Positions 4,428 through 41,218 of a stretch of DNA of 64,000 bases are shown here, one piece after another. The notes under the pieces were generated by a model. That model ran no database searches and had not been told where the DNA came from. It saw only the letters and a list, made by a program, of their open reading frames with translations. The number at the start of each line of letters is the position of its first letter. Within the stretch, counting starts at the first letter, position 1. Position numbers and translations under genes: made by a program. This stretch comes from a virus, in IMG/VR virus record IMGVR_UViG_3300020045_009368, positions 35,780-99,779 of that record. One strand, 5' to 3'.

Positions 4428-4461
4428 TTATATAAGTTTATTAAATTTTCTATTAACTTTA

Positions 4462-15354: not shown

Positions 15355-15512
15355 ATAGCGAGGTTTCCACGATTTCTAACTGAAATGTGTTACCCTTGGC
15401 TAGCCAGTGTTACAGAAGTTGTCATACCTCGCAAAACCCATCCTCTTAAAACTATACGTTGGTGCCGTGTCCACCATTAATTAAGACAACTGTATCCTAA
15501 ACTAGTTGCTAT
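15355..15512 (-). ncRNA. Candidate structured ncRNA with its own promoter
   Basis: GC-enriched, ORF-free; nested helices atagc/gctat, gcgaggt/acctcgc, tggtg/cacca, caact/agttg; promoter at 15528. Confidence 0.45.
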
Positions 15513-15527
15513 TTTATTTTAATACTA

Positions 15528-15605
15528 CAAAGATACAACATTTATTTGTAAAATCCTAATTTTTTAGTAATTATTTTCAATTATTTGGAGTTTACTAATA
15601 GCTTT
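15528..15605 (-). promoter_or_regulatory. Promoter (TATCTTTG) with AAAGCTATTA box
   Basis: caaagata 15528-15535; taatagcttt 15596-15605. Confidence 0.7.
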
Positions 15606-15608
15606 TTG

Positions 15609-15800
15609 TTAATATTCTAATCTCATATTAGATTCTTTATCATACACAACCATTGTTTTTTTAGTTCCATTAACAAATCCAAACATTAAATCTTTAAATT
15701 TTGGTAATATAAGTTCTTGTTCACATTCTTTTGCAATAAAAGATTTTGAAAAATATATATCTTTAATATATTTAACATATTTTAATTTTTCTTTATTCAT
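15609..15800 (-). CDS. Hypothetical protein, first gene of the minus-strand block
   Basis: Promoter directly upstream. Confidence 0.6.
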   Translation of the reverse strand: MNKEKLKYVKYIKDIYFSKSFIAKECEQELILPKFKDLMFGFVNGTKKTMVVYDKESNMRLEY

Positions 15801-15815
15801 AATATTTAATTTTTA

Positions 15816-15848
15816 CAAATATACAACAAATAATTGACATTTCCAAAT
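15816..15848 (-). promoter_or_regulatory. Promoter (TTTG-N19-TATATTTG)
   Basis: rc reads tttggaaatgtcaattatttgttgtatatttg. Confidence 0.72.
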
Positions 15849-16024
15849 TTTTTTTAATTTTTTTTTAAAATTTTTATTTGTGAGTGAATATGCTAAAATT
15901 TTATTTTTTTTAGAAAAAATTATTATTCTCAAATGTGCTAACTAACCTAAACTTCACCCCACTCTTTTCAAGTTTTGGTAATATACCCCTATACATTATC
16001 TTATTAATCCTTAAATGTCTTATT

Positions 16025-16395
16025 ATGACTAAATTCAAAGCTGTTCAAAATGAACAAACTGGCAAAACTGATTACAACTTTCCTGCGGAATTAAAATCTG
16101 TAGGAACTAAAGAGTTTGAAAACTCTAATGGTACAAAGTATGTACTTGGTACTGTTGACTTCACGTACCCTAATGGTACACCTGCAAAAGCTGTCACAAC
16201 TCAAATCTTTGCTAAATCATTAGCTCACGGTATGAAAGTTGGAGATTCTTTGTTATCAACTCTGTCTCGTGATGATAACAACACTATGTGGATTAGAACT
16301 TCACACTTACTGCTGGTAACACTATTGACATTGATGCCTTTGGTAGCTTGTTTGATGAAGTTGCTGTTGAAGAAGAAGTTGAAGCAAATGCTTAA
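16025..16395 (+). CDS. Beta-rich protein with acidic tail (SSB-like); apparent -1 frameshift at about 16309
   Basis: ATG 16025 (MTKFKAVQ...RTSHL), then the -1 frame gives TAGNTIDIDAFGSLFDEVAVEEEVEANA* ending just before a terminator. Confidence 0.6.
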
Positions 16396-16399
16396 TTAT

Positions 16400-16428
16400 A
16401 GGGAACCTTCGGGTTCCTTATTTTTTTT
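16400..16428 (+). terminator. Intrinsic terminator
   Basis: agggaacc-ttcg-ggttcctt followed by a T8 tract. Confidence 0.85.
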
Positions 16429-16782
16429 ATCCATAACTAACCTCACACTATAAGAGTCTTAACTCTCAATGTGTTCTAAATATAATTCTCTTAAATAACA
16501 TCTAACTTCATAAATGGTGTTTTAACTCAGATAGCTACGACTTGGCTACAGTTTGTTAAGGATTTTAAGAGAATTTAAATATAAATTTATACCTTATTAT
16601 ATATAGGTGTAAATAAAGTCATAAATATTAAGAGTTTAAGTTGATTTTTTCCCTTAATACTTTAAAATTACATTATGAGTTTAAATTTAACTATATTCGT
16701 GATATTAATCCTGTCTATATTAAATTTAATGAATCTTTGAACACTTTCGAGTTAGTAAATCTTATAATGTAATTTAAATTAT

Positions 16783-16845
16783 TAAACTCTATTTAATAGG
16801 TCATAAGCAACTATTAACTTGTAAGGTGCAACCTTGTAGAGTTTA
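16783..16845 (+). ncRNA. IR-closed structured element 1 (stem + hairpin + T-loop-like hairpin)
   Basis: taaactcta/tagagttta; taatag/ctatta; aagg-tgcaa-cctt. Confidence 0.5.
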
Positions 16846-16853
16846 TTTTTTAT

Positions 16854-16974
16854 TAAATTGATGATGTGAGAGAGTTATACTATTTTTCATTGATTACGTT
16901 TCTAGTGTAAATGTGGCTTTATACCTAAACATTTGTTTACATCACTGTCACAAATCTCTCACATCATCAATTTA
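16854..16974 (+). ncRNA. IR-closed structured element 2 (20-bp perfect stem)
   Basis: taaattgatgatgtgagaga 16854-16873 / tctctcacatcatcaattta 16955-16974. Confidence 0.6.
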
Positions 16975-17028
16975 TTTAATACTTATAGCTTTCTTAACAC
17001 TAATTAACTAACATCTAACTATTAAATT

Positions 17029-17274
17029 ATGGAAATATTATACTCATTAATTTGCATTGTATTATTCTTATTAATACTAATTTGTGTAAATAATACAAAT
17101 AAATCATCCAAAATTACAAATAAACCAAGACCAACAATAAATAAATCACAATCTTTACCACCTAAAGGGCCTAAATCTAAACGTCAATGTTTATGTGGTT
17201 ATACTGAAATATGTCCATCTCAAGAAGGTATTTGTACTAATTTATGTGTTGGTGGAGATGATTGGAATGATTAA
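17029..17274 (+). CDS. Small membrane-anchored Cys-rich protein
   Basis: N-terminal TM; CLCG..C....C...C. Confidence 0.6.
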   Translation: MEILYSLICIVLFLLILICVNNTNKSSKITNKPRPTINKSQSLPPKGPKSKRQCLCGYTEICPSQEGICTNLCVGGDDWND

Positions 17275-17282
17275 AACAATTT

Positions 17283-17469
17283 AATAGTTAAATAAGGCAC
17301 TGTACGTGGAGTACAGCTTAAATAAAATATTACTTTCCCTAATAAGTCTAAATTATTATATTGTAATAAATACAACAGTATCTATAAATGTATAAAATAT
17401 GTGCAACCTTTAGAAAGTTAACAACATAATCAATTTATAATAGTATGTGAGATATACTAATTAACTATT
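17283..17469 (+). ncRNA. IR-closed structured element 3
   Basis: aatagttaa/ttaactatt; inner ctgtac-gtgga-gtacag and tagtat/atacta hairpins. Confidence 0.4.
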
Positions 17470-17506
17470 TATTTAAAACAATTAACTAACAACTAAAACT
17501 AATATT

Positions 17507-17731
17507 ATGAAAGTATTTCTAGTTTACAGTATTATAACAAATACATCAAAACCATCACATTATGCTTCTTATAAAACAGAAACATTAGAAGGTATGTTTG
17601 ATACTAATGAACAAGCATTAATAAAAGTAGATGAATTACATTCTAAATTTAGAGAGCTTGAAGAAGAATATCCTGAATATTATTTCACTAATGTTGAAAT
17701 TAGAGAAAATATAGTACATATATCTAATTAA
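17507..17731 (+). CDS. Hypothetical protein
   Basis: A-rich leader ending attATG. Confidence 0.65.
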   Translation: MKVFLVYSIITNTSKPSHYASYKTETLEGMFDTNEQALIKVDELHSKFRELEEEYPEYYFTNVEIRENIVHISN

Positions 17732-17763
17732 AACAAATTATTAACTGACTAAATAACAAAACA

Positions 17764-18126
17764 ATGAAAGCTTATTTTCAAAACAAACTAGTATCTATTA
17801 AAGACAAAATTAATAGTACATCAAAACAAATCATTAAAGGTGTTGATGAATACAAATTAAATGAAATAGTGTCATTATCACAATCATTAAAAGTATTAAA
17901 ACAACAGCATGAAGAGTTAACTAAAGATGCTGTAAAGTATTTATCAGTTGATGACATCATAGGACTTGCAAATCATAAAGCATCAAGCTATTCTCCAGAA
18001 GTAGTTAATCTTCTTGATAAATACCCTCTTGAATCTGCCTTTAAACATGATAGAACTGTAACTATTCTTGAAAGAGAAAAACTTGTTCTTACATTTGGCT
18101 ATTCATTAAGAGATGCAAAAGTATAA
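17764..18126 (+). CDS. Hypothetical protein
   Basis: ORF track, A-rich leader. Confidence 0.7.
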   Translation: MKAYFQNKLVSIKDKINSTSKQIIKGVDEYKLNEIVSLSQSLKVLKQQHEELTKDAVKYLSVDDIIGLANHKASSYSPEVVNLLDKYPLESAFKHDRTVTILEREKLVLTFGYSLRDAKV

Positions 18127-18134
18127 CAACACTT

Positions 18135-18173
18135 TAGTCAGTCAATTACAGGTAATGCTGGGTTGACTGATTA
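18135..18173 (+). ncRNA. IR-closed element 4 (hairpin capped by cag-gtaatg-ctg)
   Basis: tagtcagtcaa/ttgactgatta, 11 bp including one G-U that favours the + strand. Confidence 0.5.
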
Positions 18174-18182
18174 TATTAAATT

Positions 18183-18244
18183 AAACTCTTGTCTTATCAT
18201 ATGTGTAAGCTAAGTGGTGGATTTCGTATTACCAACAAGAGTTT
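18183..18244 (+). ncRNA. IR-closed element 5
   Basis: aaactcttgt/acaagagttt; inner ctta/taag and tggt...ttcg...acca hairpins. Confidence 0.5.
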
Positions 18245-18253
18245 TATTAAACT

Positions 18254-18381
18254 AATAATAGTTATAATGTATGGAATTATTATATATGATTTAATCACAT
18301 ATATAGTGACACATAGGTTGAATAAGTTTAATGTGATTAATTAAATACAACTGCTGGAAACGTAACATTATAACTATTATT
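18254..18381 (+). ncRNA. IR-closed element 6 (17-bp perfect stem)
   Basis: aataatagttataatgt/acattataactattatt; inner ttaatcacat/atgtgattaa. Confidence 0.6.
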
Positions 18382-18653
18382 TTTATTAACTAACTAAACA
18401 ATAACATTATGAAAACAAAAGTATTTACAGAGTATGGTTCACACTTAGAATCAAAAGTAAATGAATGGTTATTAAAAAATAATAAAATTAACATTAGTTT
18501 TATAACTCAGTCATCAACTGAATGTATAACTGTTTTAACAATATTTTATGTTGATTTAAATTAATTAATTATGAAAACAATAAAACATTTATTCAAACTA
18601 ATATATTGTATGTGTGATAGAAGTCATTCAGACAATAATTTACCTAATCCTAA

Positions 18654-18962
18654 ATGTACCAATTGTGGTCATTTATTACCTTAATTATTATGACAAATAA
18701 AAAAATAATAATAATTGGTGCAATGTTAGGTCATGAATTACATACTAATGCATTACATTATCATAGATTAGAAAAAATTGAACCTATTATTATAACTGGT
18801 TTAACACAAACTAAACATGATGTATCATTACCTAATGTTTTAGATAACAATATTGTAATGAAAATGAACCACAGTTATAATACTAATTTAATAGTTAAAG
18901 ACTGTATTAACAAACGTAATAAATTTGTTAATAAACCTAAATTCTTACGTAAAAAGAAATAA
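18654..18962 (+). CDS. Hypothetical protein (start probably the MTNKK ATG)
   Basis: ORF track. Confidence 0.55.
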   Translation: MYQLWSFITLIIMTNKKIIIIGAMLGHELHTNALHYHRLEKIEPIIITGLTQTKHDVSLPNVLDNNIVMKMNHSYNTNLIVKDCINKRNKFVNKPKFLRKKK

Positions 18963-19127
18963 TATTAATCCCAAATCTATATTATGTCAACAATAACTAA
19001 CTTACAAATTGAACAGTTTTATAACAAAGATAATAAAACTGAAGGTTCTAATTTTACACCATTTAATAATATATCACCAACCTTGGTTAAAATTATTAAA
19101 GAGGTATTAACTAACAAATAACAAATT

Positions 19128-19673
19128 ATGAAAAAATTATTATTAATTGTATTACTGATAACTAGTTTATCTAATGCACAACAAACAGAAAGAGATTTTA
19201 AATTTCTTTTAAGTTTAGGAGTTGATCCAAGAATGGCAACAGTAGGACCTCATGATGGGCAAGAAAATAATAAACCAACTTTAGATATTGAAGGATCTAT
19301 TGGTTTTGAATGGGAAAACAATCGTATTATGATGCAATATAAAAGTCATAAAGCAATTAATTTTGCAAAATGGACATATATTCAATATGATTTAAAAACA
19401 AATCTTTTTAAAAATGTTTATGGTTATGGTGGTTTAGAAGTTAGTCAAATAATTAAAAAACATCCAGATGCGTTATATGATCAACCAGATAATTATAGAG
19501 ATACAACTATAAATCCTATTATTTTTGGTGCAAATTTAGAAGTTCAATGGAAGTTTAATGATGATAAATTTGGAATTGGTTCACAATTCTCAATGTATCA
19601 AGCAGAAGATGAACTAAAAGAATATAAGAAATTTCGTAAAGAAGTTACAATTACATTATTTATGTATTTTTAA
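19128..19673 (+). CDS. Secreted, probable outer-membrane beta-barrel protein
   Basis: Sec signal MKKLLLIVLLITSLSNA-Q, alternating amphipathic strands, C-terminal VTITLFMYF. Confidence 0.65.
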   Translation: MKKLLLIVLLITSLSNAQQTERDFKFLLSLGVDPRMATVGPHDGQENNKPTLDIEGSIGFEWENNRIMMQYKSHKAINFAKWTYIQYDLKTNLFKNVYGYGGLEVSQIIKKHPDALYDQPDNYRDTTINPIIFGANLEVQWKFNDDKFGIGSQFSMYQAEDELKEYKKFRKEVTITLFMYF

Positions 19674-19685
19674 TAACTATTAATT

Positions 19686-19907
19686 ATGAAACATTTATTA
19701 AAAAAACTATTTTTTGCTTTAGTAGTATTACTAAGTATATTTATATTAGGTATATTTGTACCTATGATTATATCAATTTTTATTAGTATTATAACAGATG
19801 CTACATTAACAGATTGTGTTCAATCAGCAGGATTTAGAGGACTTACTATTTGTTGTATTATATTTTCATCAATTTATATTATTCATCAAGTAAAAGATTT
19901 ACCTTAA
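19686..19907 (+). CDS. Two-TM small membrane protein
   Basis: Hydrophobic profile. Confidence 0.65.
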   Translation: MKHLLKKLFFALVVLLSIFILGIFVPMIISIFISIITDATLTDCVQSAGFRGLTICCIIFSSIYIIHQVKDLP

Positions 19908-19914
19908 ATAAAAT

Positions 19915-19988
19915 AAACCAAGACAACTGATTAGTATTAGGTGGTTGACCGATACCTATGTACGTGGTCCAGAGCTCTGTCTTGGTTT
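19915..19988 (+). ncRNA. IR-closed element 7
   Basis: aaaccaagaca/tgtcttggttt; inner taggt/accta; GC-rich interior. Confidence 0.55.
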
Positions 19989-19996
19989 TAAAACAT

Positions 19997-20085
19997 AAAC
20001 ACATTAGCAGATTAAATATATGAAGTACATGCGTGAAGACACCGTAGTGAAATATATTTAGATCACGTTCAAAACTAATGTGTTT
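19997..20085 (+). ncRNA. IR-closed element 8
   Basis: aaacacattag/ctaatgtgttt; inner taaatatat/atatattta. Confidence 0.55.
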
Positions 20086-20200
20086 TAATAATGTATCATT
20101 TCAGTTTATATTATAATATTAAAATAAAATGAAAATTGCAATATATATTGCTAAAAAATTAACAAAATAACAACAAATATTAATCTTAAAAGCAAATGTC

Positions 20201-20926
20201 ATGGAACAGTTTAAAAGAGCACAGGTAATAATATTACCTACAAAAGAAAAAACAGGTATTATATTAGGATTAGAAAGCAATCATTTATATAATAGAATAG
20301 GAAGATATAATGATAATCTTGGAAAAGATGGTAGTATTGAATTTCAACATTTATATATTACATCAGATGATGAAATAAAAGAAGGAGATAAAATTTATAA
20401 TATTGAATTTAACAAAATATTTACAGTAAAATCAATTTATGAAACAGTATTACATGAACAAGCTATATCCTTTTTAGAAGGAGGTATTGGAAATAAAAAA
20501 GATTGTAAAAAAATCATAGCTACAACAGATACTTCATTAAGTGAAACACATAAACAATTAGTTAAAGTAAGTGAAACAACAACTAAAGTTATAGATAATT
20601 TACCTCAACCATCACAACAGTTTGTTACTAAATATATTGAAGAATATAATAAAGGCAATGTAATTAAAGATGTATTAGTTGAATATGAAAATATTTGTCA
20701 ATGTAGTAATTATATTGAACATAGTTATAGAGTTGACAATAAAGAATGTTCAGATGATAAGGGTTATAAACTAAAAATCAATTCTAAAGACAATACTATT
20801 ACAATTAAAAAACTAAAAGATAGTTGGAATAGAGAAGAAGTAATTAAATTATTAAATAAATTTTTAGAAACTGCTTATGATGGTAAAACTAAAAATTATA
20901 ATAAATGGATTGAAGAAAACTTATAA
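20201..20926 (+). CDS. Hypothetical phage protein
   Basis: 241 aa; QHLYITSDDEIKEGD, KKIIATTD, LPQPSQQF. Confidence 0.75.
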   Translation: MEQFKRAQVIILPTKEKTGIILGLESNHLYNRIGRYNDNLGKDGSIEFQHLYITSDDEIKEGDKIYNIEFNKIFTVKSIYETVLHEQAISFLEGGIGNKKDCKKIIATTDTSLSETHKQLVKVSETTTKVIDNLPQPSQQFVTKYIEEYNKGNVIKDVLVEYENICQCSNYIEHSYRVDNKECSDDKGYKLKINSKDNTITIKKLKDSWNREEVIKLLNKFLETAYDGKTKNYNKWIEENL

Positions 20927-20954
20927 ATAACTAAAATAAATAAATATTAAAATT

Positions 20955-21158
20955 ATGGCAACATTACAAAAAGATCCAAACTCAAAAAGAAGTTTAAAAC
21001 GTTTAAAAACAGGTATTACAAATTCAAGACCTGTTCGTAGAGCTTTAAAAAGACTAGCTAGAGCAAAACAAGGATATTTAAATATTAATGAATGGAGAAG
21101 AATTCATTATGTTAGTGATTCAAAACCTTGTGAACCAGGAGCAATGAATTATAATTAA
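20955..21158 (+). CDS. Small basic protein
   Basis: Arg/Lys rich; A-rich leader. Confidence 0.6.
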   Translation: MATLQKDPNSKRSLKRLKTGITNSRPVRRALKRLARAKQGYLNINEWRRIHYVSDSKPCEPGAMNYN

Positions 21159-21165
21159 AGTAAAT

Positions 21166-21194
21166 AGGGTTGTGTTAATAATAATCACAACCCT
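21166..21194 (+). other. 9-bp intergenic hairpin (processing site or weak terminator)
   Basis: agggttgtg/cacaaccct, no long U-tract. Confidence 0.5.
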
Positions 21195-21225
21195 TAAAAT
21201 TAAATAACTAAATTAAACATAAATT

Positions 21226-21615
21226 ATGAAAAATCAAAAAGAATTAACAACAGTAACTTACAACTTTGCAGACAATACTAAAGTTGTACAACCAATTAAC
21301 AAACAAGCTTATTTTGATGAAAAAGGACGTAAACGTTCTATTCAACAATTACATCATGTATTTGAAACTACAGCTTTTGATAAAAAAGCTATTGGTTATA
21401 CACTTGAAGGTAAAGAATCTATTGCAGTAGCTGTTGAAGAACCTCAATTTACTAAAGTTGAGCGTTACAATGCTAAAAAAGATCACAAAGACTTTATTAA
21501 ATCTAATTTAAAAGAGTTTAACAATCAAAAAAAACAATTTCAAGCTTTAGTTGTAGATAAATTCATGAATAACAAAATGCGTGTTAGAATGAATGCTACA
21601 ATTATTACTAACTAA
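21226..21615 (+). CDS. Hypothetical protein
   Basis: ORF track. Confidence 0.7.
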   Translation: MKNQKELTTVTYNFADNTKVVQPINKQAYFDEKGRKRSIQQLHHVFETTAFDKKAIGYTLEGKESIAVAVEEPQFTKVERYNAKKDHKDFIKSNLKEFNNQKKQFQALVVDKFMNNKMRVRMNATIITN

Positions 21616-21621
21616 CAATTT

Positions 21622-21680
21622 ATAAAATGTTGCTATTGCACGTACATACTATCTGTTTGAAAGTCAGATCAACATTTTAT
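21622..21680 (+). ncRNA. IR-closed element 9
   Basis: ataaaatgttg/caacattttat; atctg-tttgaaagt-cagat hairpin stacked on the stem. Confidence 0.5.
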
Positions 21681-21699
21681 TTTAACTAAATAATAAATT

Positions 21700-21975
21700 A
21701 TGGAAAAATATATAATTGAAACAATATTTGTTTTTGCATTTGTTTTATCTTGTTTATTAATTAAATCAAGTAAAAAACAAAAACATACCAATATTCAAGG
21801 TGAAATTGGTAATAAATTAGCTTTAATTCATAAAATGAGTAAAACTAATAAAGAAAGTGATGGATTCTGTATTGAAAACACAGAAAGACCAATTATTCCT
21901 TATGAAAAAGAACCTGGTTCTTTCTATTTATCAGAACATATTAGTTCAGTAATTGATAAAAAACTTGTATTATGA
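21700..21975 (+). CDS. Membrane-anchored hypothetical protein
   Basis: N-terminal TM. Confidence 0.6.
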   Translation: MEKYIIETIFVFAFVLSCLLIKSSKKQKHTNIQGEIGNKLALIHKMSKTNKESDGFCIENTERPIIPYEKEPGSFYLSEHISSVIDKKLVL

Positions 21976-22157
21976 TAACAGTATCTATATTTGGAATTGT
22001 AATACTTATATTTGTATTACACACAATTTTAACACATTTACTTAATTGGTTTATTAGATCTTGTGGTAATTCAGAATCTTTAGCTGTTTTAGTTGTAATA
22101 ATTAATATTATAGAAATTGGTACTTGTATTGGATTATTAAATTATTATATATCATGA
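21972..22157 (+). CDS. Small two-TM protein
   Basis: Hydrophobic; ATGA overlap. Confidence 0.6.
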   Translation: MITVSIFGIVILIFVLHTILTHLLNWFIRSCGNSESLAVLVVIINIIEIGTCIGLLNYYIS

Positions 22158-22678
22158 GTAATAAAAAACAAGTATTTCTTTCATTAGAAACAGCTAGACA
22201 AATGTGGAACGGATTAATTCACGATTATCCACATATAAATAAACTAGTTGAATTATTCTTATTAGATAATTTTACTAAAGAAGAATTAGAAGCTAAAGAA
22301 TTACCTAAAACTTGGGAAGAATTAAAAAAAGTAAGTGGTTATTATATTAATCAATATTCTGAAATAGGTAGTGGTAAAGATTATTCTACATCTGTTACAT
22401 CAAAAAATACATTCCCAACTAAAGAATTAGCTGAAGCATCATTAGCATTATCTCAATTATTACAATTAAGAGATGTTTATAATGGTGATTGGAAAGTTGA
22501 TTTAAATAATAGACCTAATGAAACTTTATTTCTTATTTTAAATAAACATAATAATATATTTAAATCAGATACTCAAGGTGGATTAAATAGAATTTTATCA
22601 TTTAAAAAAGAATCTATTAGAGATCAATTTGTTGAAAACTTTAAAGATTTAATAACTCAAGCATTACCACTATTATGA
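22124..22678 (+). CDS. Hypothetical protein (start probably the MSNKK ATG)
   Basis: LPKTWEEL, ALSQLLQLRDVYN. Confidence 0.7.
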   Translation: MYWIIKLLYIMSNKKQVFLSLETARQMWNGLIHDYPHINKLVELFLLDNFTKEELEAKELPKTWEELKKVSGYYINQYSEIGSGKDYSTSVTSKNTFPTKELAEASLALSQLLQLRDVYNGDWKVDLNNRPNETLFLILNKHNNIFKSDTQGGLNRILSFKKESIRDQFVENFKDLITQALPLL

Positions 22679-22875
22679 TACAACTAGGAAATTTTATAGC
22701 AATTTGTATTGGTATTATTATTTATATTATATGGGGTTATTATTCTATTAAAGATATGAGTAATAATATTGAAATATCAAATAAAACAGGAATTTGGTTT
22801 TGTTTAACATTTATTATAATTTTTATATTGTTTATAATATTATTAATTTATTTAAATAAATACACAATACCATAA
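22675..22875 (+). CDS. Small two-TM protein
   Basis: Hydrophobic; ATGA overlap. Confidence 0.6.
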   Translation: MIQLGNFIAICIGIIIYIIWGYYSIKDMSNNIEISNKTGIWFCLTFIIIFILFIILLIYLNKYTIP

Positions 22876-23040
22876 ATAGTTATTACTGATTGAAAAAGGG
22901 TTTAGAATAGACAGTAATACTCAAAATCTCACCCAGTAACCCTGCAAAATAGTCATGCAATTGAGATTTTAAGACCCGAACTATATTTGTCTTAATCGAC
23001 TTCAATATAGAAGTTAAAACTGTAGGTGAGATTAACTATT
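22875..23040 (+). ncRNA. IR-closed multi-hairpin element 10
   Basis: aatagtta/taactatt enclosing ttactg/cagtaa, aaaatctca/tgagatttt and ctatatt/aatatag. Confidence 0.5.
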
Positions 23041-23160
23041 AATTAACAATTTAACAAATAAAATTATGAAACATTCAGTACAACAATTAAAAGAATGGTT
23101 AGCTACTAACAAAAAAGACGATTACAAAACAATTGTAGTTTATTAAATAATATATAAAAT

Positions 23161-23382
23161 AAAACCATCTAATCCTTAAACTGGCTAGGAGTGAAACATT
23201 TAGATACAGATTCTGTTAAGCATAATATGGAACTTATGAGAGTTAATCTTTAAATAACTTATAATAAATATTAGAACGTAAGAAATATACAAAGCAATTT
23301 ATTGTGGTAGATATTATAAACTCGGTAAATATAAAAATATTTTATTTAAACTTATATTAACGCCACTCATTTAGATGGTTTT
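23161..23382 (+). ncRNA. IR-closed element 11 (~220 nt)
   Basis: aaaaccatctaa/ttagatggtttt; inner tcct/agga, gagtg/cactc. Confidence 0.5.
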
Positions 23383-23397
23383 TTAACAACTAAAATT

Positions 23398-23580
23398 ATG
23401 AAATACAGAGAAAATGATTATTTTAATAATATAGATGATTATTTAATACAAGATGTAAGTATAAAATCAAACCTTGTTTCTAAATTACATTTTTATAATG
23501 GTAATTGGTATTCAAATAAAAGTTTAAACTATAAAATGACATCTGTAATTTGTATTAATATTAATGAACTATTAAACTAA
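23398..23580 (+). CDS. Hypothetical protein
   Basis: ORF track. Confidence 0.5.
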   Translation: MKYRENDYFNNIDDYLIQDVSIKSNLVSKLHFYNGNWYSNKSLNYKMTSVICININELLN

Positions 23581-23673
23581 AATTATGAAAAAACACAGAA
23601 CAACAATAGTAGCTTTAGTGGTTACTATTTGGATTATTACAGAAATAATTATTAATATTAAACAAATAATATT

Positions 23674-23961
23674 ATGATAAAAGATCCTATTTTAGAAAAA
23701 GCTAATCAAATTCTTATCGAAAAAAGATTAGAACAAAGAAAACAATTTCATAAATCTAAAAGAAATAAAAGAATCATTGAAGCTGGTTTATGTCCTGAAT
23801 GTGGTGAAAAATTACAAACTATATTCAAGAAAAAAGAATATATAGGAAATCCTGAATTACCATATTCTTTTAAGAATTTAATTTCAATTACAACTTGTAA
23901 TAAAAATTATACACATTATCACAAATTAGAACATGATTATGATGATGAATATTATAATTAA
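23674..23961 (+). CDS. Zn-finger protein
   Basis: CPECG...C....H. Confidence 0.6.
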   Translation: MIKDPILEKANQILIEKRLEQRKQFHKSKRNKRIIEAGLCPECGEKLQTIFKKKEYIGNPELPYSFKNLISITTCNKNYTHYHKLEHDYDDEYYN

Positions 23962-24118
23962 TCATGTCTGAATATAAACTTCATTTAATAGGTAAAAAAT
24001 CTATTAAAATTATTGAAAGGTTTGATAACTCAGTTTTAGTAAAATATGTTAAAACAGGTATTGAAGCTTCAGTAGATCCAAAACTAATTAAAACAATAAC
24101 AATTAAAAACAAAAAATT

Positions 24119-24676
24119 ATGCAAAATTTAAACTTTACAAAAATCGCTTTATGGGGAGTATTAGGAATATTCTTAATCTTTATTGCGTCAACATTGATTT
24201 CATTCTCAAATAATGAAATTGAATTAAGAAACACTTTTGAACAAAAATTTGAAGAAAGAACTGCTTTCTATGATAAAATGTCAAAAGTATTTAATCAAAA
24301 ATCTCAAATCGCTGTTAAAAATGATTCTTCATTTAGAAAAAACATCGATATTATTATGTCACAACGTAAAGATTCTGAACAAGTAATGATGAAATGGATT
24401 ACTGAATCAAATCCTAATGCTAATTATTCAGAAGTTGCTGTATTATATAAAGATTTAAGTAGAGCTATTGAAGCTCAAAGAGAAGGATTTTTTAATCAAG
24501 AAAAAGTATTACAAGATGTTGTTAGACAACATAAAAATTTAATACAACGATTTCCAAATAGTTTTTATAATTTATTCTTTGGTAGAAAACAATTAGTTTA
24601 TAAAGTAATACAATCTACTTTAACTGAAGAAGTTATAAAAACTGGTACAGACAATAATACTAAACTTGATCTATAA
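24119..24676 (+). CDS. LemA-like membrane-anchored coiled-coil protein
   Basis: N-terminal TM, helical bundle, NLIQRFPNSFYNLFFG resembles the LemA C-terminal N..I..FP...A..FG motif. Confidence 0.55.
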   Translation: MQNLNFTKIALWGVLGIFLIFIASTLISFSNNEIELRNTFEQKFEERTAFYDKMSKVFNQKSQIAVKNDSSFRKNIDIIMSQRKDSEQVMMKWITESNPNANYSEVAVLYKDLSRAIEAQREGFFNQEKVLQDVVRQHKNLIQRFPNSFYNLFFGRKQLVYKVIQSTLTEEVIKTGTDNNTKLDL

Positions 24677-25833
24677 TGATTTGGTATGCAATACTTATCC
24701 CACTAGTAATATCATTAGTGGGATATTTTCTATACAAGCATAAATTTGCTTGGTGGGAATTATTTTTACCTGTAATCATTTCATTAATCACAATTATAAC
24801 ATCTTTTTATAGTATGAAATCTTATACTTTAAGTGATGTTGAATATAATGGTTATTTAATTACTGAAGCTAGATATTATGAATCTTATGAAACATGGGTT
24901 AAAAAAACATGTTCATATACTACATGTAGTGGTTCAGGTAAAACTAGAACTTGTACAACACATTATTATGATTGTTCATATTGTGATTATAATTCTGAAT
25001 ATTGGGTTATGGTTGATACTAAAGGTAATGAAATTGGTATTAGTGAGCAAAAGTATAATCAATTAATTAAAAAATGGTCAGCTACACCTAAATTTGTAGA
25101 ATTAAATAGAAATATTAATTATCATGGTAGTTGTGGAAAAGATGGAGATATGTATTCTATTAAATGGAATAAACATATTCAAACATCTGAAACATCTACA
25201 TATGAAAAAGAATTTACTAATATTTTAAAATGTAATCATTCTGCATTTAATTTCCCAATTATAGAAAAAAAAGATGCTATTAAATTAGGTTTGTATGAAT
25301 ATCCTATAATAGGAGAATATAATAAACAAAATTCTGTAATAGGTCTTAGTCAATTAAATATTAAAGGTAAAAAACAATTACAAACAACAATGAATTATCT
25401 TAATGGTAATTTAGGTGTTTCTAATAAAGTTAGAGTTTATACTTTGTTTTTTGTAGATAAAGAAATTGATATTGCTTTTAAACAAGAAGCCTATTGGGAT
25501 GGTGGTAATCAGAATGAATTAGTTGTATGTATTGGTGTTGATAAAATAGGTAATATTAAATGGTGTAAACCTTTTACTTGGTGTGATAATAAAAGAATGA
25601 TTGTAGATACTAGAGAAGATATTATGAATATGAAATCTATTAATAGTACTAAAATGTATAATATCTATAAAAATAATATTATGTTATTTTGGAAATATAA
25701 ATCATTTAAAGATTTTAATTATTTATCATTTGAACCTTCAACAGGACAATTAATATTTGTTTATGTATTAACTACAATTATATCATTATTGTTAACAATA
25801 TGGTGTATATATAATGATATAGATAACGAATAA
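24676..25833 (+). CDS. Membrane protein with Cys-rich loop and TPM-like domain
   Basis: Two N-terminal TMs, CSYTTCSGSGKTRTCTT, AYWDGGNQNELVVCIGV (TPM-like W..G..N.vll), C-terminal TM; TAATG-coupled to the LemA-like gene. Confidence 0.55.
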   Translation: MIWYAILIPLVISLVGYFLYKHKFAWWELFLPVIISLITIITSFYSMKSYTLSDVEYNGYLITEARYYESYETWVKKTCSYTTCSGSGKTRTCTTHYYDCSYCDYNSEYWVMVDTKGNEIGISEQKYNQLIKKWSATPKFVELNRNINYHGSCGKDGDMYSIKWNKHIQTSETSTYEKEFTNILKCNHSAFNFPIIEKKDAIKLGLYEYPIIGEYNKQNSVIGLSQLNIKGKKQLQTTMNYLNGNLGVSNKVRVYTLFFVDKEIDIAFKQEAYWDGGNQNELVVCIGVDKIGNIKWCKPFTWCDNKRMIVDTREDIMNMKSINSTKMYNIYKNNIMLFWKYKSFKDFNYLSFEPSTGQLIFVYVLTTIISLLLTIWCIYNDIDNE

Positions 25834-25977
25834 AACAATAACAAACCATTAATTAATAAATATGAAAATAAACATTATGAAGTGGTTAAATGATAGTATT
25901 CTATCAAATAAAATATTGGGAATTGAGCAAAAGCTCTCTAAGAAAAGTAGATAACAAGTCTTCCACTACTATATTTT

Positions 25978-26059
25978 AAAATGTGATCGTCTAGTGCCAC
26001 TTAAGACAGCAGTACATCCAGTATTGAAAACGTAGGTTGAAATCCTACAATATCATTTT
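25978..26059 (+). pseudogene. Degenerate tRNA-like cloverleaf (TCC/Gly-like loop)
   Basis: D-arm gtct...agac, stem cagta-catccag-tattg, T-arm gtagg-ttgaaat-cctac; poor acceptor stem. Confidence 0.5.
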
Positions 26060-26108
26060 GTCGCTCAGCTATATATCCAGGCTTAATCAAATAATGGATT
26101 GTAAAGAA

Positions 26109-26143
26109 ATATAGAGTTCTATAATTGATTTAGAACTCTATAT
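26109..26143 (+). other. 13-bp intergenic hairpin
   Basis: atatagagttcta/tagaactctatat. Confidence 0.55.
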
Positions 26144-26175
26144 ATTTCTATTAACTAACTAAACAATAATAAATT

Positions 26176-26454
26176 ATGAATATATTAGCACAATACAATA
26201 ATCTTTTTAAAAAAGATGAATTAGTATATATTGAAGATCCAATTTTAAATATTAAAGGTTTAGCTAAAGTAGTAAATACTTGTTATTTATCAGAATTACC
26301 TAAATCAGAATTACCTTATGGTTGGAGATATGGATTAAATTTTCCTCAAATAATTGTACATTTTGAAAATGAAAAAGATCCTAAAGCACATGTTTTATAT
26401 CCTTGTGATGAATTTAAATATATTAAAAAACTAATTTGTCCTGTAAAAGAATAA
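26176..26454 (+). CDS. Hypothetical protein (SH3-like pattern)
   Basis: FKKDELVYI..GLAKVV. Confidence 0.6.
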   Translation: MNILAQYNNLFKKDELVYIEDPILNIKGLAKVVNTCYLSELPKSELPYGWRYGLNFPQIIVHFENEKDPKAHVLYPCDEFKYIKKLICPVKE

Positions 26455-26569
26455 ATTATGGATTTATATCAAAAACTACTATTCTCTAATGGAGAAATTG
26501 TATATCAATATATATTTAATACTGTTGATTTAAATAATGGATTAAAAAATAACTAAATTTAATTAAATT

Positions 26570-26800
26570 ATGGAAACATTAATAATAATTTTATATGTAA
26601 TAATAACACAAATTATATGTTATTATATTAATAAATCAATTCTTAAAAAAACTCTTAAACACGATAGTGTTTACAATTGGGGATTAGTTAATACTAATTT
26701 ACTAATGAGTTTTTTTATAGCACCGTCTGTAATCTATTGGATATTAGTATTTATACTAAATTTACCAAGATTACCAGAAGAACCACCTAAATGGTTGTAA
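26570..26800 (+). CDS. Small membrane protein
   Basis: Two hydrophobic segments. Confidence 0.6.
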   Translation: METLIIILYVIITQIICYYINKSILKKTLKHDSVYNWGLVNTNLLMSFFIAPSVIYWILVFILNLPRLPEEPPKWL

Positions 26801-26801
26801 A

Positions 26802-27017
26802 ATGACTAAAGAAGAAAAAGTTAAGTTAAAACAAGAACGTGCTCATAGAAGAAAACATAAAAGATATTTAAAAGATCAAGAATATTATAATCTTGCTCGT
26901 AATAAAGATATTAATAGAATATCTATTGGAAGAAAAATAGCAAAAGGTAGATATTTTCAATGTGAAATGGGTTATGGTGATTGTGAAGATAGAGGTTACT
27001 GTAATGGTGATTGTTAA
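26802..27017 (+). CDS. Small basic Cys-rich protein
   Basis: CEMGYGDCEDRGYCNGDC. Confidence 0.6.
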   Translation: MTKEEKVKLKQERAHRRKHKRYLKDQEYYNLARNKDINRISIGRKIAKGRYFQCEMGYGDCEDRGYCNGDC

Positions 27018-27030
27018 AATATTTAAAATT

Positions 27031-27088
27031 TGGGATATAGCTCAATTGGAAGAGCAGTGTTTTTCTAGGTTCAATTCCTAGTATCCCA
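27031..27088 (+). ncRNA. tRNA-like RNA lacking the anticodon arm
   Basis: Acceptor tgggata/tatccca, D-arm gctc-aattggaa-gagc, 9-nt linker agtgttttt, T-arm ctagg-ttcaatt-cctag. Confidence 0.75.
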
Positions 27089-27156
27089 ACTAACAAATTT
27101 TCATAATTTTTGTTAGTAAAATGTTAGTAAAATAACATTTTGTTTTAGTTAGTTGG

Positions 27157-27215
27157 ATAAATTGAGTGAAATTGGGTAACTGCGAAATCAGATATGTAAT
27201 AGTAGCTCAATTTAT
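27157..27215 (+). ncRNA. IR-closed element 12
   Basis: ataaattgag/ctcaatttat; capped by ctg-cgaaat-cag. Confidence 0.5.
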
Positions 27216-27270
27216 TTTTAAATAACTACAAAATTATGAATAATAAAATAAACTAAAAATAATAAAAATT

Positions 27271-29136
27271 ATGAATAAAAATGAATTAAAAAAAGGAGAA
27301 ATTTATGCATATATACCTGATAGTAATACTTTTGGATTAACAGGAGATAATCCTTTTATTTTTGTAGCTGATCCTATTAAAAATACATCACAAACAACAG
27401 GTACTAAATATTGTGTAGTAAATACACAAGAATATTTTAGATCAAATCTTAGATGTTATTGGACAAAAGGTCTAAGACATGCAACTCCAGAAGAAAAACA
27501 TTGGCTCAACACTTGTATAGAACAAAATAAATTTGTATCTTATGAAGAAGCTATGAAAACATTTATTCCTGAATATGTTGAATGTATTAATAATAAAGAT
27601 ATTCCTTATGGAATAATTGGAAGAATTTATAAATTTAATAACTTATCTGGAAAACATTGGGGACTTAAATGTAATTTAAAATGTGCAAATTACGATCCAG
27701 ATACTACTTTATATTTTGAAATATATCAAGTTAAACCATCAACTAAAGAAGCTTACGATGCTCAATTTGTAGTTAAAGAACCTGAGTTTGTATTACCTGA
27801 AAAATGGTATATTAAAATAAAATCAACAGAAGAAGCTAATATTTATAAAGATTTTTTTAAAAAAGTAAAACCTAATCAAAATTGGGTTTTTTGGATTGAT
27901 TTTATATATGGTTTTAATGGTATTAACTATACAAATAGTGAATCACAAGGAACATTGATAACTTTTGAACAATTTGAAAAATATGTTTTGAAAGAAACTG
28001 AAGAATTAAGTCCTTTAAAATTAGCAGCTATTGAACATCCTCATTTAGCTAAAGTTGAATCTAAACCATTTGAAATATTATCAATTATTAATAATATTAC
28101 TAAAGAACAATTAGATCTTAAAAAAGATGGTTACTTTAGAAGTAAATTTTCTAGTATTCATTTAAACAATGTTAATGATAAATATTCAATTGTTTCAGTT
28201 GCTAATAAAGAAGGTAATATATTTGAAATTGGTGATACTATTATTTCAACAAGATCTAAAAAAAGATTTACTAATAATGTATCTAAAATTGTTTCATTTA
28301 AAATGAATGTTGCAAAAGATAATATTTTAATTGTTGGAGATCATTATTATAAAACAGGTGTTCTTATTAGTAATATTGAACATCATCTTCAAGATCAAAT
28401 TAAAGTTGAACCAGAATTTATTTTACCAGAAAGATGGTTTTTAAGATTTAAAACATTAGAAATATTTAATGATTTATGTAAAAAATATAAACCACATTTT
28501 ACTTTTTATCCAGAATCAGGTATTTGTAATGATATTGAAAGAAATGTTAAATTAGATAATTTTTATTATTTATCAAATAATGGTATTTTTGGTGAAGAAA
28601 TTACATTTGAACAGTTTAAGAAATATGTTCTTAAAGAAACTGAACCTGTAATTATAGCACAATCTCATAAAGATATGTTAGATCTTAAAACTAAAGGTAT
28701 TGATTCAATTGTATTACCTCAAGAAACTTTACTTGAAAAAGCTAAAAGATTATATCCTATTGGAACTAGATTTAAAAATACTTATAATTTTAACGAAGCT
28801 ATTGTTAAATGTAATAATTTTATTGATGAAATTTCTAGAATTAAACTTGATAATGGAATGCAGACAATATCTGCTGGAAATTGGACAATATATAATAAAG
28901 ATAGAGATGAATGGGCTGAAATAATTGGTTATGAACCTCAAATTGGTGATAAATTTAATAAAAAAGATTTTTCATATCCTGCATATGGTGGGAAATTTGG
29001 TAATTCTATTTATACAATTGTTAAATTTCAAGGTTCTTATGATAATCCTAATTCTGTTATTACTTTTAGAGGAGATGATTGGATAGGTGATCATACATCA
29101 ACAGTATTATTACGTAATATTAAAATCATTAAATAA
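27271..29136 (+). CDS. Mosaic multi-domain protein with internal repeat
   Basis: EPEF.LPE.W ... ITFEQF.KYVLKETE occurs twice. Confidence 0.75.
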   Translation: MNKNELKKGEIYAYIPDSNTFGLTGDNPFIFVADPIKNTSQTTGTKYCVVNTQEYFRSNLRCYWTKGLRHATPEEKHWLNTCIEQNKFVSYEEAMKTFIPEYVECINNKDIPYGIIGRIYKFNNLSGKHWGLKCNLKCANYDPDTTLYFEIYQVKPSTKEAYDAQFVVKEPEFVLPEKWYIKIKSTEEANIYKDFFKKVKPNQNWVFWIDFIYGFNGINYTNSESQGTLITFEQFEKYVLKETEELSPLKLAAIEHPHLAKVESKPFEILSIINNITKEQLDLKKDGYFRSKFSSIHLNNVNDKYSIVSVANKEGNIFEIGDTIISTRSKKRFTNNVSKIVSFKMNVAKDNILIVGDHYYKTGVLISNIEHHLQDQIKVEPEFILPERWFLRFKTLEIFNDLCKKYKPHFTFYPESGICNDIERNVKLDNFYYLSNNGIFGEEITFEQFKKYVLKETEPVIIAQSHKDMLDLKTKGIDSIVLPQETLLEKAKRLYPIGTRFKNTYNFNEAIVKCNNFIDEISRIKLDNGMQTISAGNWTIYNKDRDEWAEIIGYEPQIGDKFNKKDFSYPAYGGKFGNSIYTIVKFQGSYDNPNSVITFRGDDWIGDHTSTVLLRNIKIIK

Positions 29137-29627
29137 TGAAAGAGCTACATCCTGATCAATGTACTACAATATATTTAGAAAAATTTAAAGATAAAAACCC
29201 TAAAGATGTTAAGGAGATTATAATTGCGTTATATAATAATAATTATTGTGCTTCTTTAAAAACATATCAAGATTCTTTATGTACTAAATTACAATGTGAA
29301 TCAAGTAAGTCAAGAAGTTTTAATGATATTTATTATTTATGTAAGTCTTATTTACCTGCAACAGCTCCTAAAGATGTTATTGAAGTATTATTAAATTTAA
29401 AAATTAATAATAAAGTTATTTATGGTGGTGCTTGTGGTAATATTAAAAAAATTGTAATAAATTTTTATTCAATGAGTGAGATTAAAGCAGCTTTTATTGA
29501 TGGAACTTATGATAAGTATATTGATAAGTCTCAATATAACTCTCAATGGAACTGGAAAGAACTTTTAGAAATGATTGGGATTACTAATAATCAACAATAT
29601 AATAAATACGTAAAACACTTAGAATAA
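29136..29627 (+). CDS. Paralog family A member 1
   Basis: TY....CT..QC.....RSFNDI...C..Y.P ... C.NI.K. Confidence 0.7.
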   Translation: MKELHPDQCTTIYLEKFKDKNPKDVKEIIIALYNNNYCASLKTYQDSLCTKLQCESSKSRSFNDIYYLCKSYLPATAPKDVIEVLLNLKINNKVIYGGACGNIKKIVINFYSMSEIKAAFIDGTYDKYIDKSQYNSQWNWKELLEMIGITNNQQYNKYVKHLE

Positions 29628-29694
29628 TGGAAAGAGAAGATTATTTAGACCAAATGGAAATGCAAGGTTGGTTTAACAATGAAACAGTTGCATC

Positions 29695-30105
29695 ATGAGT
29701 ATATATGTAAAACATGGTAGAAAAAAAAGTATTAAAGAGTTTTTAATAGAATTTTTTAAATCTGAGAAAAGAAATAGTTATTTAATAGGTGTTACAACAT
29801 ATCGAAATCCTGAATGTACAATTCAGCAATGTGATGATAATAGATATAGATCTTTTGATGATATATTAGAATTAGTAAATAATTATTATAAAAATGTATC
29901 TGCTAAAAAATTAATAAATATATTAAATGATTTAAAACCTATTGATTCTAAAAATATATTAAAAAAATTTCATATTTTTTATTGTGATGATATTCACAAG
30001 TCAATTATATTATATACTAATTATGGTAATTTAACTAAATCAGATGAAAAAAGAAAATGTAAATATTCTTGCAATGAATTAATAGAAATGATTAAAAACA
30101 AATAA
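29695..30105 (+). CDS. Paralog family A member 2
   Basis: TYRNPECTIQQCDDNRYRSFDDI ... YCDDIHK. Confidence 0.7.
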   Translation: MSIYVKHGRKKSIKEFLIEFFKSEKRNSYLIGVTTYRNPECTIQQCDDNRYRSFDDILELVNNYYKNVSAKKLINILNDLKPIDSKNILKKFHIFYCDDIHKSIILYTNYGNLTKSDEKRKCKYSCNELIEMIKNK

Positions 30106-30135
30106 AATTAATAAAAATAATAAAACAATTAAATT

Positions 30136-30522
30136 ATGAAAAGTCAAAACACAAAAGTATTTTTTAGATACGAAACTGAAGAAATTGATGAACAAATTCC
30201 AGTAATGGAAGGAAATAAAGTTAAAAGAGAAAAAGGTAAAAAAGTTTTTATTTTAACAGGAAATAAAAAATCAATTACTAAATTAGATGGTAAAATTGAA
30301 GCTATTATGATTGATTCAAATTCAGGTGAAGAAATTGCTCGTAGAGAAGTATTACCTCGTCATGGTGATAAACCAAACAAAGTTATTGGAAGAAAATATG
30401 TATTCAAAAAGCTTATGACTAAAGCATTGGATGAAAATTTAATTCCAAGACAAGAAGTTGGTGAATTATGGAAATCATTTGGTGCTACTTGTAAACAACC
30501 AAGTCAAAAATTAGTTTACTAA
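30136..30522 (+). CDS. Hypothetical protein
   Basis: GDKPNKVIGRKY. Confidence 0.7.
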   Translation: MKSQNTKVFFRYETEEIDEQIPVMEGNKVKREKGKKVFILTGNKKSITKLDGKIEAIMIDSNSGEEIARREVLPRHGDKPNKVIGRKYVFKKLMTKALDENLIPRQEVGELWKSFGATCKQPSQKLVY

Positions 30523-30590
30523 TGAAAAATAGTATTTTAGGATTTGGCGGTGGCGGATTTTCTGGCGGTGGTTCTGGCGGAAGTTGGTAA
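30522..30590 (+). CDS. 22-aa Gly-rich micropeptide MKNSILGFGGGGFSGGGSGGSW
   Basis: ATG overlaps the upstream stop (TAATG); GGC-rich; resembles C-terminal tails of TPM/YgcG proteins. Confidence 0.6.
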   Translation: MKNSILGFGGGGFSGGGSGGSW

Positions 30591-30598
30591 AATAAATT

Positions 30599-30659
30599 AA
30601 TAATGGTAATGATAACATAAGAGCCTGAAATAGTGCTAGATAGGTAAATTACCATTATT
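30599..30659 (+). ncRNA. IR-closed element 13
   Basis: aataatggtaat/attaccattatt; inner gcct/aggt. Confidence 0.5.
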
Positions 30660-30704
30660 TCTTATATTGTATTAAAAGTTATGACTCAACTTTAATACTA
30701 ATAT

Positions 30705-36259: not shown

Positions 36260-36344
36260 TAAGATAATCTTATTAAAAAATAAGAATAAACTTTAAAAAT
36301 AATAAAAAAATTCATAAGATTATTAGTAATAACTAATAAATTAA

Positions 36345-41125: not shown

Positions 41126-41134
41126 TATAATAAA

Positions 41135-41210: not shown

Positions 41211-41218
41211 TTAAAATT

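Follow-up and report, generated by a model that had tools for sequence, protein, structure and literature searches.

What is the function of the stem-closed elements that lie in the intergenic gaps between positions 16,783 and 30,659 of the viral DNA considered here? This DNA, referred to throughout as the window, is a stretch of 64,000 nucleotides (nt) comprising bases 35780-99779 of a 99.8-kb IMG/VR record (IMGVR_UViG_3300020045_009368) that is 99% complete; the G+C content of the genome is about 24%. A reading made earlier from the sequence alone (the sequence-only reading) had listed 13 such elements, here called e1-e13 and all on the plus strand, and had proposed that they are a library of small folded RNAs, excised from a polycistronic early transcript to act as decoys or sponges for host proteins, or else that they are DNA hairpins read by a virion RNA polymerase. 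The explanation favoured here, at a probability of about 0.42, is that they are RNA modules at gene ends that form transcript 3' ends, by termination, processing or protection, and that double as the boundaries of gene cassettes.

Large leftward genes occupy the window as far as about 15.8 kb; from about 16.0 kb on the genes are rightward, in a unit that is presumably the early one. The DNA polymerase gene at 30705-32642 is most like the polymerases of crAss-like phages (about 29% identity), and phi14:2, a crAss-like Cellulophaga phage, has in its g004 a homologue of the product of 20201-20926; judged by these likenesses, e1-e13 occupy the first 15 kb of the rightward unit of a distant phage of the Crassvirales type. 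The nearest IMG/VR genomes show about 45-50% identity in a conserved protein of 129 amino acids (aa) encoded at 21226-21615, and have a very different early-gene content; no isolate phage was found to carry e12 or the early region.

All 13 closing duplexes of the sequence-only reading were recovered at their positions. Since its coordinates had been picked around stems, the gaps were tested as a whole: 15 intergenic gaps (3.7 kb; window 15.9-31 kb) were compared with dinucleotide-preserving shuffles, a stem being counted if it was perfectly Watson-Crick paired over at least 9 bp with at least two G-C pairs, and being binned by the length of its loop. Nine stems with loops of 26-60 nt were observed against 0.51 expected, five against 0.72 for loops of 61-120 nt, and three against 0.86 for loops of 121-230 nt, which makes 17 long-range closing stems where the shuffled gaps have about 2.1, an enrichment of about eightfold. 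A similar, weaker excess was seen in 11 related phages and in the remainder of the window.

When family-wise p values were calculated for the best stem of each gap, seven of the 13 elements were individually significant on stem strength. The most striking are e2 (16854-16974; perfect 20-bp closing stem, 81-nt interior; z -7.45, p <0.0025), for which no homologue was found, and e6 (18254-18381; perfect 17-bp closing stem, 94-nt interior; z -4.46, p <0.0025). They are joined by e7 (19915-19988; 11-bp closure around a 52-nt interior of 46% GC; p 0.010), e8 (19997-20085; 11-bp closure, 67-nt interior with a z of -2.4; p 0.013), e9 (21622-21680; 11-bp closure, 37-nt interior; p 0.003), e11 (23161-23382; p 0.013) and e13 (30599-30659; 12-bp closure, 37-nt interior; p 0.003), which lies upstream of the DNA polymerase gene. 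Significance is marginal for e5 (18183-18244; 10-bp closure, 42-nt interior; p 0.065) and for e12 (27157-27215; p 0.095), and is not reached by stem strength alone for e1 (p 0.63), e3 (p 0.42) and e10. The closures of e3 (17283-17469; 9 bp) and e10 (22875-23040; non-coding, 8 bp, not among the top stems) are no better than chance; the minus strand of e3 folds better than the plus strand, and its standing as an element is doubtful. For e1, e4 and e12 the case is rescued by conservation and covariation in relatives, as described below, while for e2, e5-e10 and e13 it is only the stem statistics that stand. Two further closed elements on the plus strand, upstream of the range originally noted, lie at 16484-16575 (12-bp stem, 68-nt interior; p 0.022, z -2.6) and at 16665-16775 (12-bp stem, 87-nt interior; p 0.048, z -3.5).

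The comparison with dinucleotide shuffles that the sequence-only reading had proposed as a check thus went its way for the closures, which are in excess, and against it for the interiors, which it had described as sub-structured. Once the closing arms were removed, the mean z was -0.7, a value driven by the trivial 13-nt interior of e4, and z was positive for e5, e9, e11 and e13. Because the interiors are no more stable than their shuffles, the signal is in the closure and not in a folded interior. Other parts of the description are borne out: interiors tend to be richer in GC (0.24-0.46, against about 0.24 for the genome), tandem elements are separated by 8-9 nt, and the elements share architecture and not sequence, with no mutual similarity inside the genome. 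No second copy of any element was found in the 99.8-kb genome. The plus-strand fold is more stable than the minus-strand fold in nine of the 13 elements. Stems of at least 10 bp around interiors of 35-40 nt recur as a size class across the clade; a search by eye and by minimum free energy for a fold common to the class of about 60 nt (e1, e5, e9, e12 and e13) yielded only loose GAAA-type loops. Within interrupted stems, G.T and A.C mismatches number one each, which is too few to compare.

The Rfam search that had also been suggested was run, and no family of Rfam 15 (ribozymes, riboswitches and small RNAs included) matches e1-e13, nor the e11 homologue and the six loci holding full-length members of the e1 family. 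The supposed T-loop-like caps have no counterpart there, since no element has a transfer RNA (tRNA) or other Rfam match at E values up to 5. ARAGORN reports no tRNA in the window, and a tRNA origin of e1-e13 was rejected, no element having an ARAGORN or Rfam tRNA score. The nearby tRNA mimics are real: 27031-27089 scores 46.5 bits against the Rfam tRNA model, and 25975-26065 has tRNA-like D and T arms. The array of 13 closures does lie in the early region, but the architecture is not restricted to it. It recurs beyond that region at two gene ends, 36264-36323 and 56699-56766, where stems of 10 and 14 bp surround A-rich interiors of 40 nt with almost no G+C and no structure, so that the architecture appears without any plausible folded cargo. 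At 58654-58767, 114 nt are closed by a 9-bp stem (AGAGAGAAG/CUUCUCUCU) with a good T arm (GUAGGUUCGAGUCCUAU) abutting its 3' strand and a U tail following; this segment is tRNA-like, yet is called neither by ARAGORN nor by Rfam.

Searches of related IMG/VR phages indicate that e1, e4, e11 and e12 are members of sequence-conserved RNA families, none of which is in Rfam, and the covariation that the sequence-only reading had hoped for is present in all of them, as compensatory and G.U changes that fit pairing in plus-strand RNA. The copy of e1 in the window (16783-16845) is a shortened family member, with a closing helix P1 (AAACUCU/AGAGUUU), a 3' hairpin (AAGGU-GCA-ACCUU) and a U-rich tail, and without the 5' core CAUCCAAUUGCAGG. 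The exact 3' motif of the family occurs in 44 viral contigs, most of which have the full form, namely the P1 5' strand, the invariant CAUCCAAUUGCAGG, 30-150 variable nt, CAAGGUGCAACCUUG, the P1 3' strand and, in most members, a U-rich tail. Among 24 members, 246 of 246 cells of P1 are paired, with double changes at five pairs and with every one-sided change leading to G.U, figures to be read with the caveat that the 5' arms were located by requiring pairing and that the search pattern itself set part of the 3' arm. The second family is represented by e4 (18135-18173), a 39-nt hairpin with three G.U pairs, which is near-invariant in 28 IMG/VR contigs, where it stands behind unrelated genes and is usually followed by an ATG after 17-27 nt. 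Its conserved parts are the hairpin itself, the 5' flank UAACAACACUU, which holds the stop codon, and the 3' flank UAUUAA; all variants of the stem keep pairing, by U.G to U-A or G.U to G-C changes.

The e11 family has lengths of 225-250 nt and a closing stem of 12-15 bp. In ten of 13 relatives it lies directly 3' of the homologue of the 129-aa protein, a site that in the window is occupied by e9. The relatives share an identical 15-bp closing stem, invariant blocks at the 5' side (CUAAUCCUUAAAnUGGCUAGGA) and at the 3' side (CGCCAC...UUAGGUGAUUU), and a variable middle; the window copy differs from all the others by three compensatory pair changes, and one relative has a G.U pair. The position of e1 and e4 varies between phages; in relatives, e11 and e12 are found at syntenic sites. 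In e4, e1 and e12 the stem changes run only between Watson-Crick and G.U pairs in the plus sense, and never give A.C, which argues that these structures act in plus-strand RNA and not in DNA. An origin as a miniature inverted-repeat transposable element or other repeated mobile element was considered and rejected, given the single copy per genome and the syntenic sites of e11 and e12.

The e12 site is the most informative. The element is a 22-bp irregular hairpin followed by a U tract: above a lower stem of 11 bp come an internal loop, an upper stem of 8 bp in which G.U pairs are conserved, a CUG/CAG stem and a GNRA-like cap. In the alignment 97% of cells are paired, with six compensatory pairs (relative to L036); none of 500 shuffles was as good, and no slid register approaches the true one. 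The element or a positional equivalent was present in all ten relatives in which the anchor motif is retained, on the stretch from a tRNA (or tRNA-like) gene to a conserved mini-ORF (a very short open reading frame, ORF) upstream of the homologue of 27271-29136. In 11 of 11 genomes examined, the site has a stem of at least 10 bp and then TTTATTTT, and the stem sequences covary. What the stem encloses is another matter: in L044 a 12-bp stem carries a 4-nt GAAA tetraloop, and in L034 an 11-bp stem carries a 10-nt loop, both being ordinary terminator hairpins, while interiors elsewhere are 26-37 nt and up to 96 nt. Whatever is conserved at this site must then be a function that a plain hairpin and U tract can perform.

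The surroundings of e12 have features of their own. The mini-ORF (27236-27253; five codons, ATG AAT AAT AAA ATA TAA) and the 40 nt after it are near-invariant in 11 genomes, upstream of the 621-aa gene, and could be a leader peptide or a promoter region. The tRNA-like segment at 27031-27089 has acceptor, D and T arms, with 4 nt in place of the 17-nt anticodon arm, and is passed over by ARAGORN; because relatives have genuine tRNAs at this site, among them tRNA-Glu and tRNA-Asn, it is a former tRNA gene that has lost its anticodon arm. Behind it, hairpins at 27086-27156 have the loop UUUCAUAAU, which is complementary to AAUUAUGAAA, the common start context. Relatives keep this loop while the stems covary (AAACUAUG/UGUAGUUU, CUAACAAA/UUUGUUAG and AAACAAAG/UUUUGUUU); the hairpins could be an antisense regulator of translation starts.

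The placing of the elements relative to genes is as regular as their closure. Five of them (e3, e4, e7, e9 and e10) begin 0-8 nt past a stop codon, e7 lying 7 nt past the stop at 19907 and e9 6 nt past that at 21615, and the distance from the end of the element to the next ATG is 15-55 nt in eight cases and 115 nt for e8. A T.T mismatch bounds 12 of 16 closures, because a T run continues only on the 3' side, and this orientation fits plus-strand transcripts; at the inner side of the stem ends there is no base asymmetry (four against three). At least six T in the 9 nt after the last G or C follow e1, e2, e5, e6, e9, e11, e12 and e13, in a background that is itself T-rich, and the U tract is weak for e4, e7, e8 and e10. 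The next ATG is often preceded by a leader of the TTAACTAAC type with stops in all three frames, the exact motif being found at 17004, 17482, 18386, 19107 and 26151. Thus e6 is directly followed by UUUUUAUUAACUAACUAAAC and then by an ATG at 18409, the leader at 18382-18408 (plus strand) reading UUUAUUAACUAACUAAAC...AUG, with TAACTAACTAA giving a stop in every frame. Sites resembling sigma-70-type promoters are not above chance (137, against 152 in shuffles), and it is only this leader motif that recurs. A scan of the 16 kb from 15500 to 31500 gave only five canonical terminator-like sites, none of them at e1-e13.

On the reading favoured here, each module would start within a few bases of a stop codon, and an A-rich 5' arm would pair with a U-rich 3' arm to give a terminal helix of 9-20 bp, followed by a U-rich tail and then by the A/U-rich leader of the next gene. 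The terminal helix and U tail would make or protect the 3' end of an RNA, whether by release or pausing of the intrinsic-terminator type, by protection from exonucleases, or possibly by endonuclease cutting, and the helix would insulate neighbouring cistrons. The loop of the helix would tolerate insertions from 4 to about 200 nt. The occurrence of the same architecture at gene ends outside the early region supports this view.

Their exact placing at gene boundaries also makes the modules the points at which related phages exchange gene cassettes, as a comparison of genomes shows. Near-relative contigs from metagenomes, 90-98% identical in pieces, jump from 22677 to 22872, so that a 66-aa gene is skipped and the match resumes at e10, whose sequence is about 97% conserved in these contigs without the upstream gene. 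The same contigs jump from 24116 to 25910, and have the middle of e11 replaced and its ends kept. Relative to L033 and L044, from which they are absent, e5 and e6 form an insert between e4 and the gene leader; and in L036 an e1-type element takes the place of e11 after the homologue of the 129-aa gene. An ATG-initiated ORF of 47 codons at 18201-18344, which runs across e5 and e6 and would encode a hydrophobic stretch, is probably spurious: its start context is atypical, and relatives lack the segment.

Several observations weigh against gene-end modules of so simple a kind. Known intrinsic terminators have loops far shorter than the 37-198 nt seen here, and stems that close such long loops may form too slowly to terminate transcription. 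A clean U tract is missing at e4, and at e11 in relatives, and U-richness is in any case weak evidence at 24% GC. The tandem sets e1-e2, e4-e5-e6 and e7-e8 would be redundant as terminators. A plain terminator would not need sequences as nearly invariant as e4 and the cores of e1 and e11 are in phages whose shared proteins are only about 45-50% identical, and the size class described above is left unexplained by termination. With their invariant cores, e1 and e11 probably have a more specific role, for instance in binding a factor or as small RNAs that stay stable.

A further reading, which we consider unlikely, is that e1, e11 and perhaps e4 and e12 are new classes of functional crAss-like RNA, serving as gated terminators or punctuation RNAs for transcripts of the virion RNA polymerase. 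Every one of them would form a domain whose closing helix, P1, directly adjoins a U tract, and a phage or host factor, or a terminating ribosome 6-8 nt upstream, would decide whether the long-range helix forms. Depending on that decision the early transcript would end or be cut there, or a stable small RNA would be released.

A rival of similar and equally limited likelihood is that the elements are processing sites in a polycistronic early RNA, with irregular helices of about 20 bp as the substrate of host RNase III or a comparable nuclease, and that cutting leaves 3' hairpins which stabilise each mRNA. It stays a serious rival because such helices with an internal loop, as in T7, are found in e12 (59 nt, 22 bp) and can be drawn for the full-length e1 family, where an 11-bp P1, a 4x4 internal loop and a 5-bp UUGCA/UGCAA helix can form; the perfect stems of e2 (20 bp) and e6 (17 bp) are of about that length, the recurrent size class of about 57-68 nt suggests an enzyme of the ruler type, and tandem elements would no longer be redundant. 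The shortened e1 of the window cannot form the extended helix, however, nor can e5, e9 and e13, whose interiors do not extend the closing stem, and the hairpins of L034 and L044 at the e12 site, which have U tracts and are only 11-12 bp long, would suffice as terminators but fall short of a classic substrate.

The proposal of the sequence-only reading itself, that discrete stable small RNAs are excised and act in trans as decoys, sponges or otherwise, is less probable again. Stable RNAs typically have their 5' and 3' ends paired, interior GC is raised, and the invariant cores and variable middles of e1 and e11 would suit such RNAs, for which these two elements are plausible candidates; the tRNA arrays of relatives have a similar unit size and spacing, and phi14:2 makes abundant, stable, rightward early RNAs from intergenic regions, which persist (bioRxiv 10.1101/2020.03.07.982082). 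Against this, the interiors are no more folded than shuffles and at one and the same site are freely replaced or absent, the e12 site ranging from 4 to 96 nt with plain terminators in two relatives, which does not fit a library of folded decoys. Most of e2, e5-e10 and e13 lack a clear sequence homologue in relatives, the exceptions being e10, found in near relatives among metagenome contigs only, and e13, at whose position L007 and L039 have a 58-nt element of like build and other sequence. No target, partner protein or likeness to a known decoy RNA was found for any element, and nothing ties any of them to a host protein or defence system; none of the phi14:2 RNAs is homologous to e1-e13.

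Signals at the DNA level, either hairpin promoters of the kind used by N4-like virion RNA polymerases or inverted repeats that are bound by protein or recombine, are very improbable. It is true that gp66 of phi14:2 transcribes denatured DNA and that the early promoters of that phage have no sequence motif (bioRxiv 10.1101/2020.03.07.982082), that most closures are perfect Watson-Crick duplexes which either strand could form, that elements lie just upstream of gene starts, and that, as RNA, the A-rich interiors of 36264-36323 and 56699-56766 look unfolded. But the plus-sense G.U pairs of e4, e1 and e12 would be A.C mismatches on the template strand, extrusion as cruciforms is unlikely with loops of 37-200 nt, no sequence is found more than once in a genome, and plain RNA terminators stand at the e12 site in two relatives; the pattern of G.U-only variation together with the long loops disfavours the DNA-hairpin alternative of the sequence-only reading. 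Functionless chance palindromes in AT-rich non-coding DNA, for which one might cite the chance-level closures of e3 and e10 and a genome-wide count of long stems only slightly above a Markov model, are scarcely credible and are refuted for most elements by the eightfold gap excess, by per-gap p values down to <0.0025, and by conservation and covariation in four families.

Some neighbouring features deserve mention. Only one intrinsic terminator of textbook form (AGGGAACC-TTCG-GGTTCCTT, then T8) occurs in the region, at 16398-16421, inside the 3' end of the ORF 16025-16453. A conserved hairpin of the type GTATTA-AAAGTKWTGACTCAM-TAATAC at 30665-30704, directly before the start of the DNA polymerase gene, is shared by the window, G1, G3, G4 and L030 and is reminiscent of a translational operator. 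Further downstream, 37527-38249 encodes a protein with NUMOD3 motifs, typical of homing endonucleases, and is preceded by a promoter-like region of the Bacteroidetes type (TATATTGC/TTTG). Searches of 30 proteins with Pfam and PHROGs gave no RNase, RNA ligase, Ro or RtcB-like protein.

The elements provide concrete, conserved candidates for the RNA signals of early transcription by the crAss-like virion RNA polymerase, and they extend from T4-type phages to the Crassvirales the idea, discussed below, that cassettes are exchanged at small stem-loop modules. The four families are absent from Rfam, and their covariation is clear enough to seed covariance models. Should they prove to be ordinary terminators whose loops are overgrown, their value would be mainly as an aid to annotation.

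Among known systems, the usual intrinsic terminator is a G+C-rich hairpin with a loop of about 3-8 nt and a U tract directly after it. The elements resemble it in having a stem just past a stop codon, in many cases with a U-rich tail, and in the ordinary hairpins that two relatives have at the e12 site, and they differ in that their stems are AT-rich and their loops, at 13-198 nt, are 10-50 times longer than usual. The RNase III sites of the T7 early region, R0.3-R1.3, are irregular hairpins of about 60 nt between early genes. Their plan of lower stem, internal loop and upper stem is seen in e12 and may form in the full-length e1 family, although the elements have no consensus in common and many lack an upper stem. 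The N4-type virion RNA polymerase promoter is a DNA hairpin of 5-7 bp on the template strand, with a 3-nt loop and several similar copies, whereas the stems described here have 9-20 bp, the loops 13-198 nt and no repeated copies, and the G.U pattern favours the non-template sense.

Phage tRNA arrays offer units of 59-89 nt with 8-9-nt spacers and paired ends, and relatives have their tRNAs and transfer-messenger RNA (tmRNA) in the same region; no element scores as a tRNA, however, closing stems are of 9-20 bp and not 7, and there is no T loop. A conserved non-coding segment at 25877-26065, about 77% identical to L030 14695-14866, has a tRNA-like 3' half in which a D arm is present, the T arm (GTAGGTTGAAATCCTAC) is perfect and the anticodon arm is degenerate, and since a 26-codon ORF at its start is broken in L030, it looks like an RNA of about 190 nt. 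Phage tmRNA genes were found in L045, which is phi14:2 (4031-4500), L027 (6741-7103), L028 (9952-10361), L029 (9507-9899) and L013 (13776-14150), in the early region between the g004 homologue and the 129-aa gene, where the window has a 67-aa ORF.

The early RNAs of phi14:2 come from the same phage order and from the same neighbourhood, downstream of the g004 homologue, and are not homologous to e1-e13. Closed elements of its own lie in phi14:2 at L045 4269-4389, 7903-7953 and 8093-8200. One of the regions of abundant RNA in that phage is, according to ARAGORN and Rfam, largely tmRNA, which the genome of the window lacks. The other region reported as abundant stable early RNA includes a motif (L045, about 3130-3225), AUGUGUUGU..CUUGAGAAAG..CAACACAAAUGAGUUCUCAGCA, that is shared with L011 and with an intergenic element of the window at 41126-41262. 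Two crossing pairings in this element suggest a pseudoknot, and in the window the motif is followed by a canonical terminator at 41219-41244.

The closest parallel is with the promoter-early stem-loop cassettes (PeSLs) of T4-type phages (PMC2839356, PMC4122927). The present elements depart from PeSLs in having no recognisable sigma-70-type promoter in e1-e13, in occurring once per genome where PeSLs have many similar copies, and in enclosing 37-200 nt in place of a short loop, with invariant cores in e1 and e11. In both cases, a hyperplastic region contains small non-coding stem-loop modules, placed where small early genes end; and, as with PeSLs, the modules stay conserved from one phage to another next to differing genes, and coincide with the boundaries of insertions, deletions and replacements.

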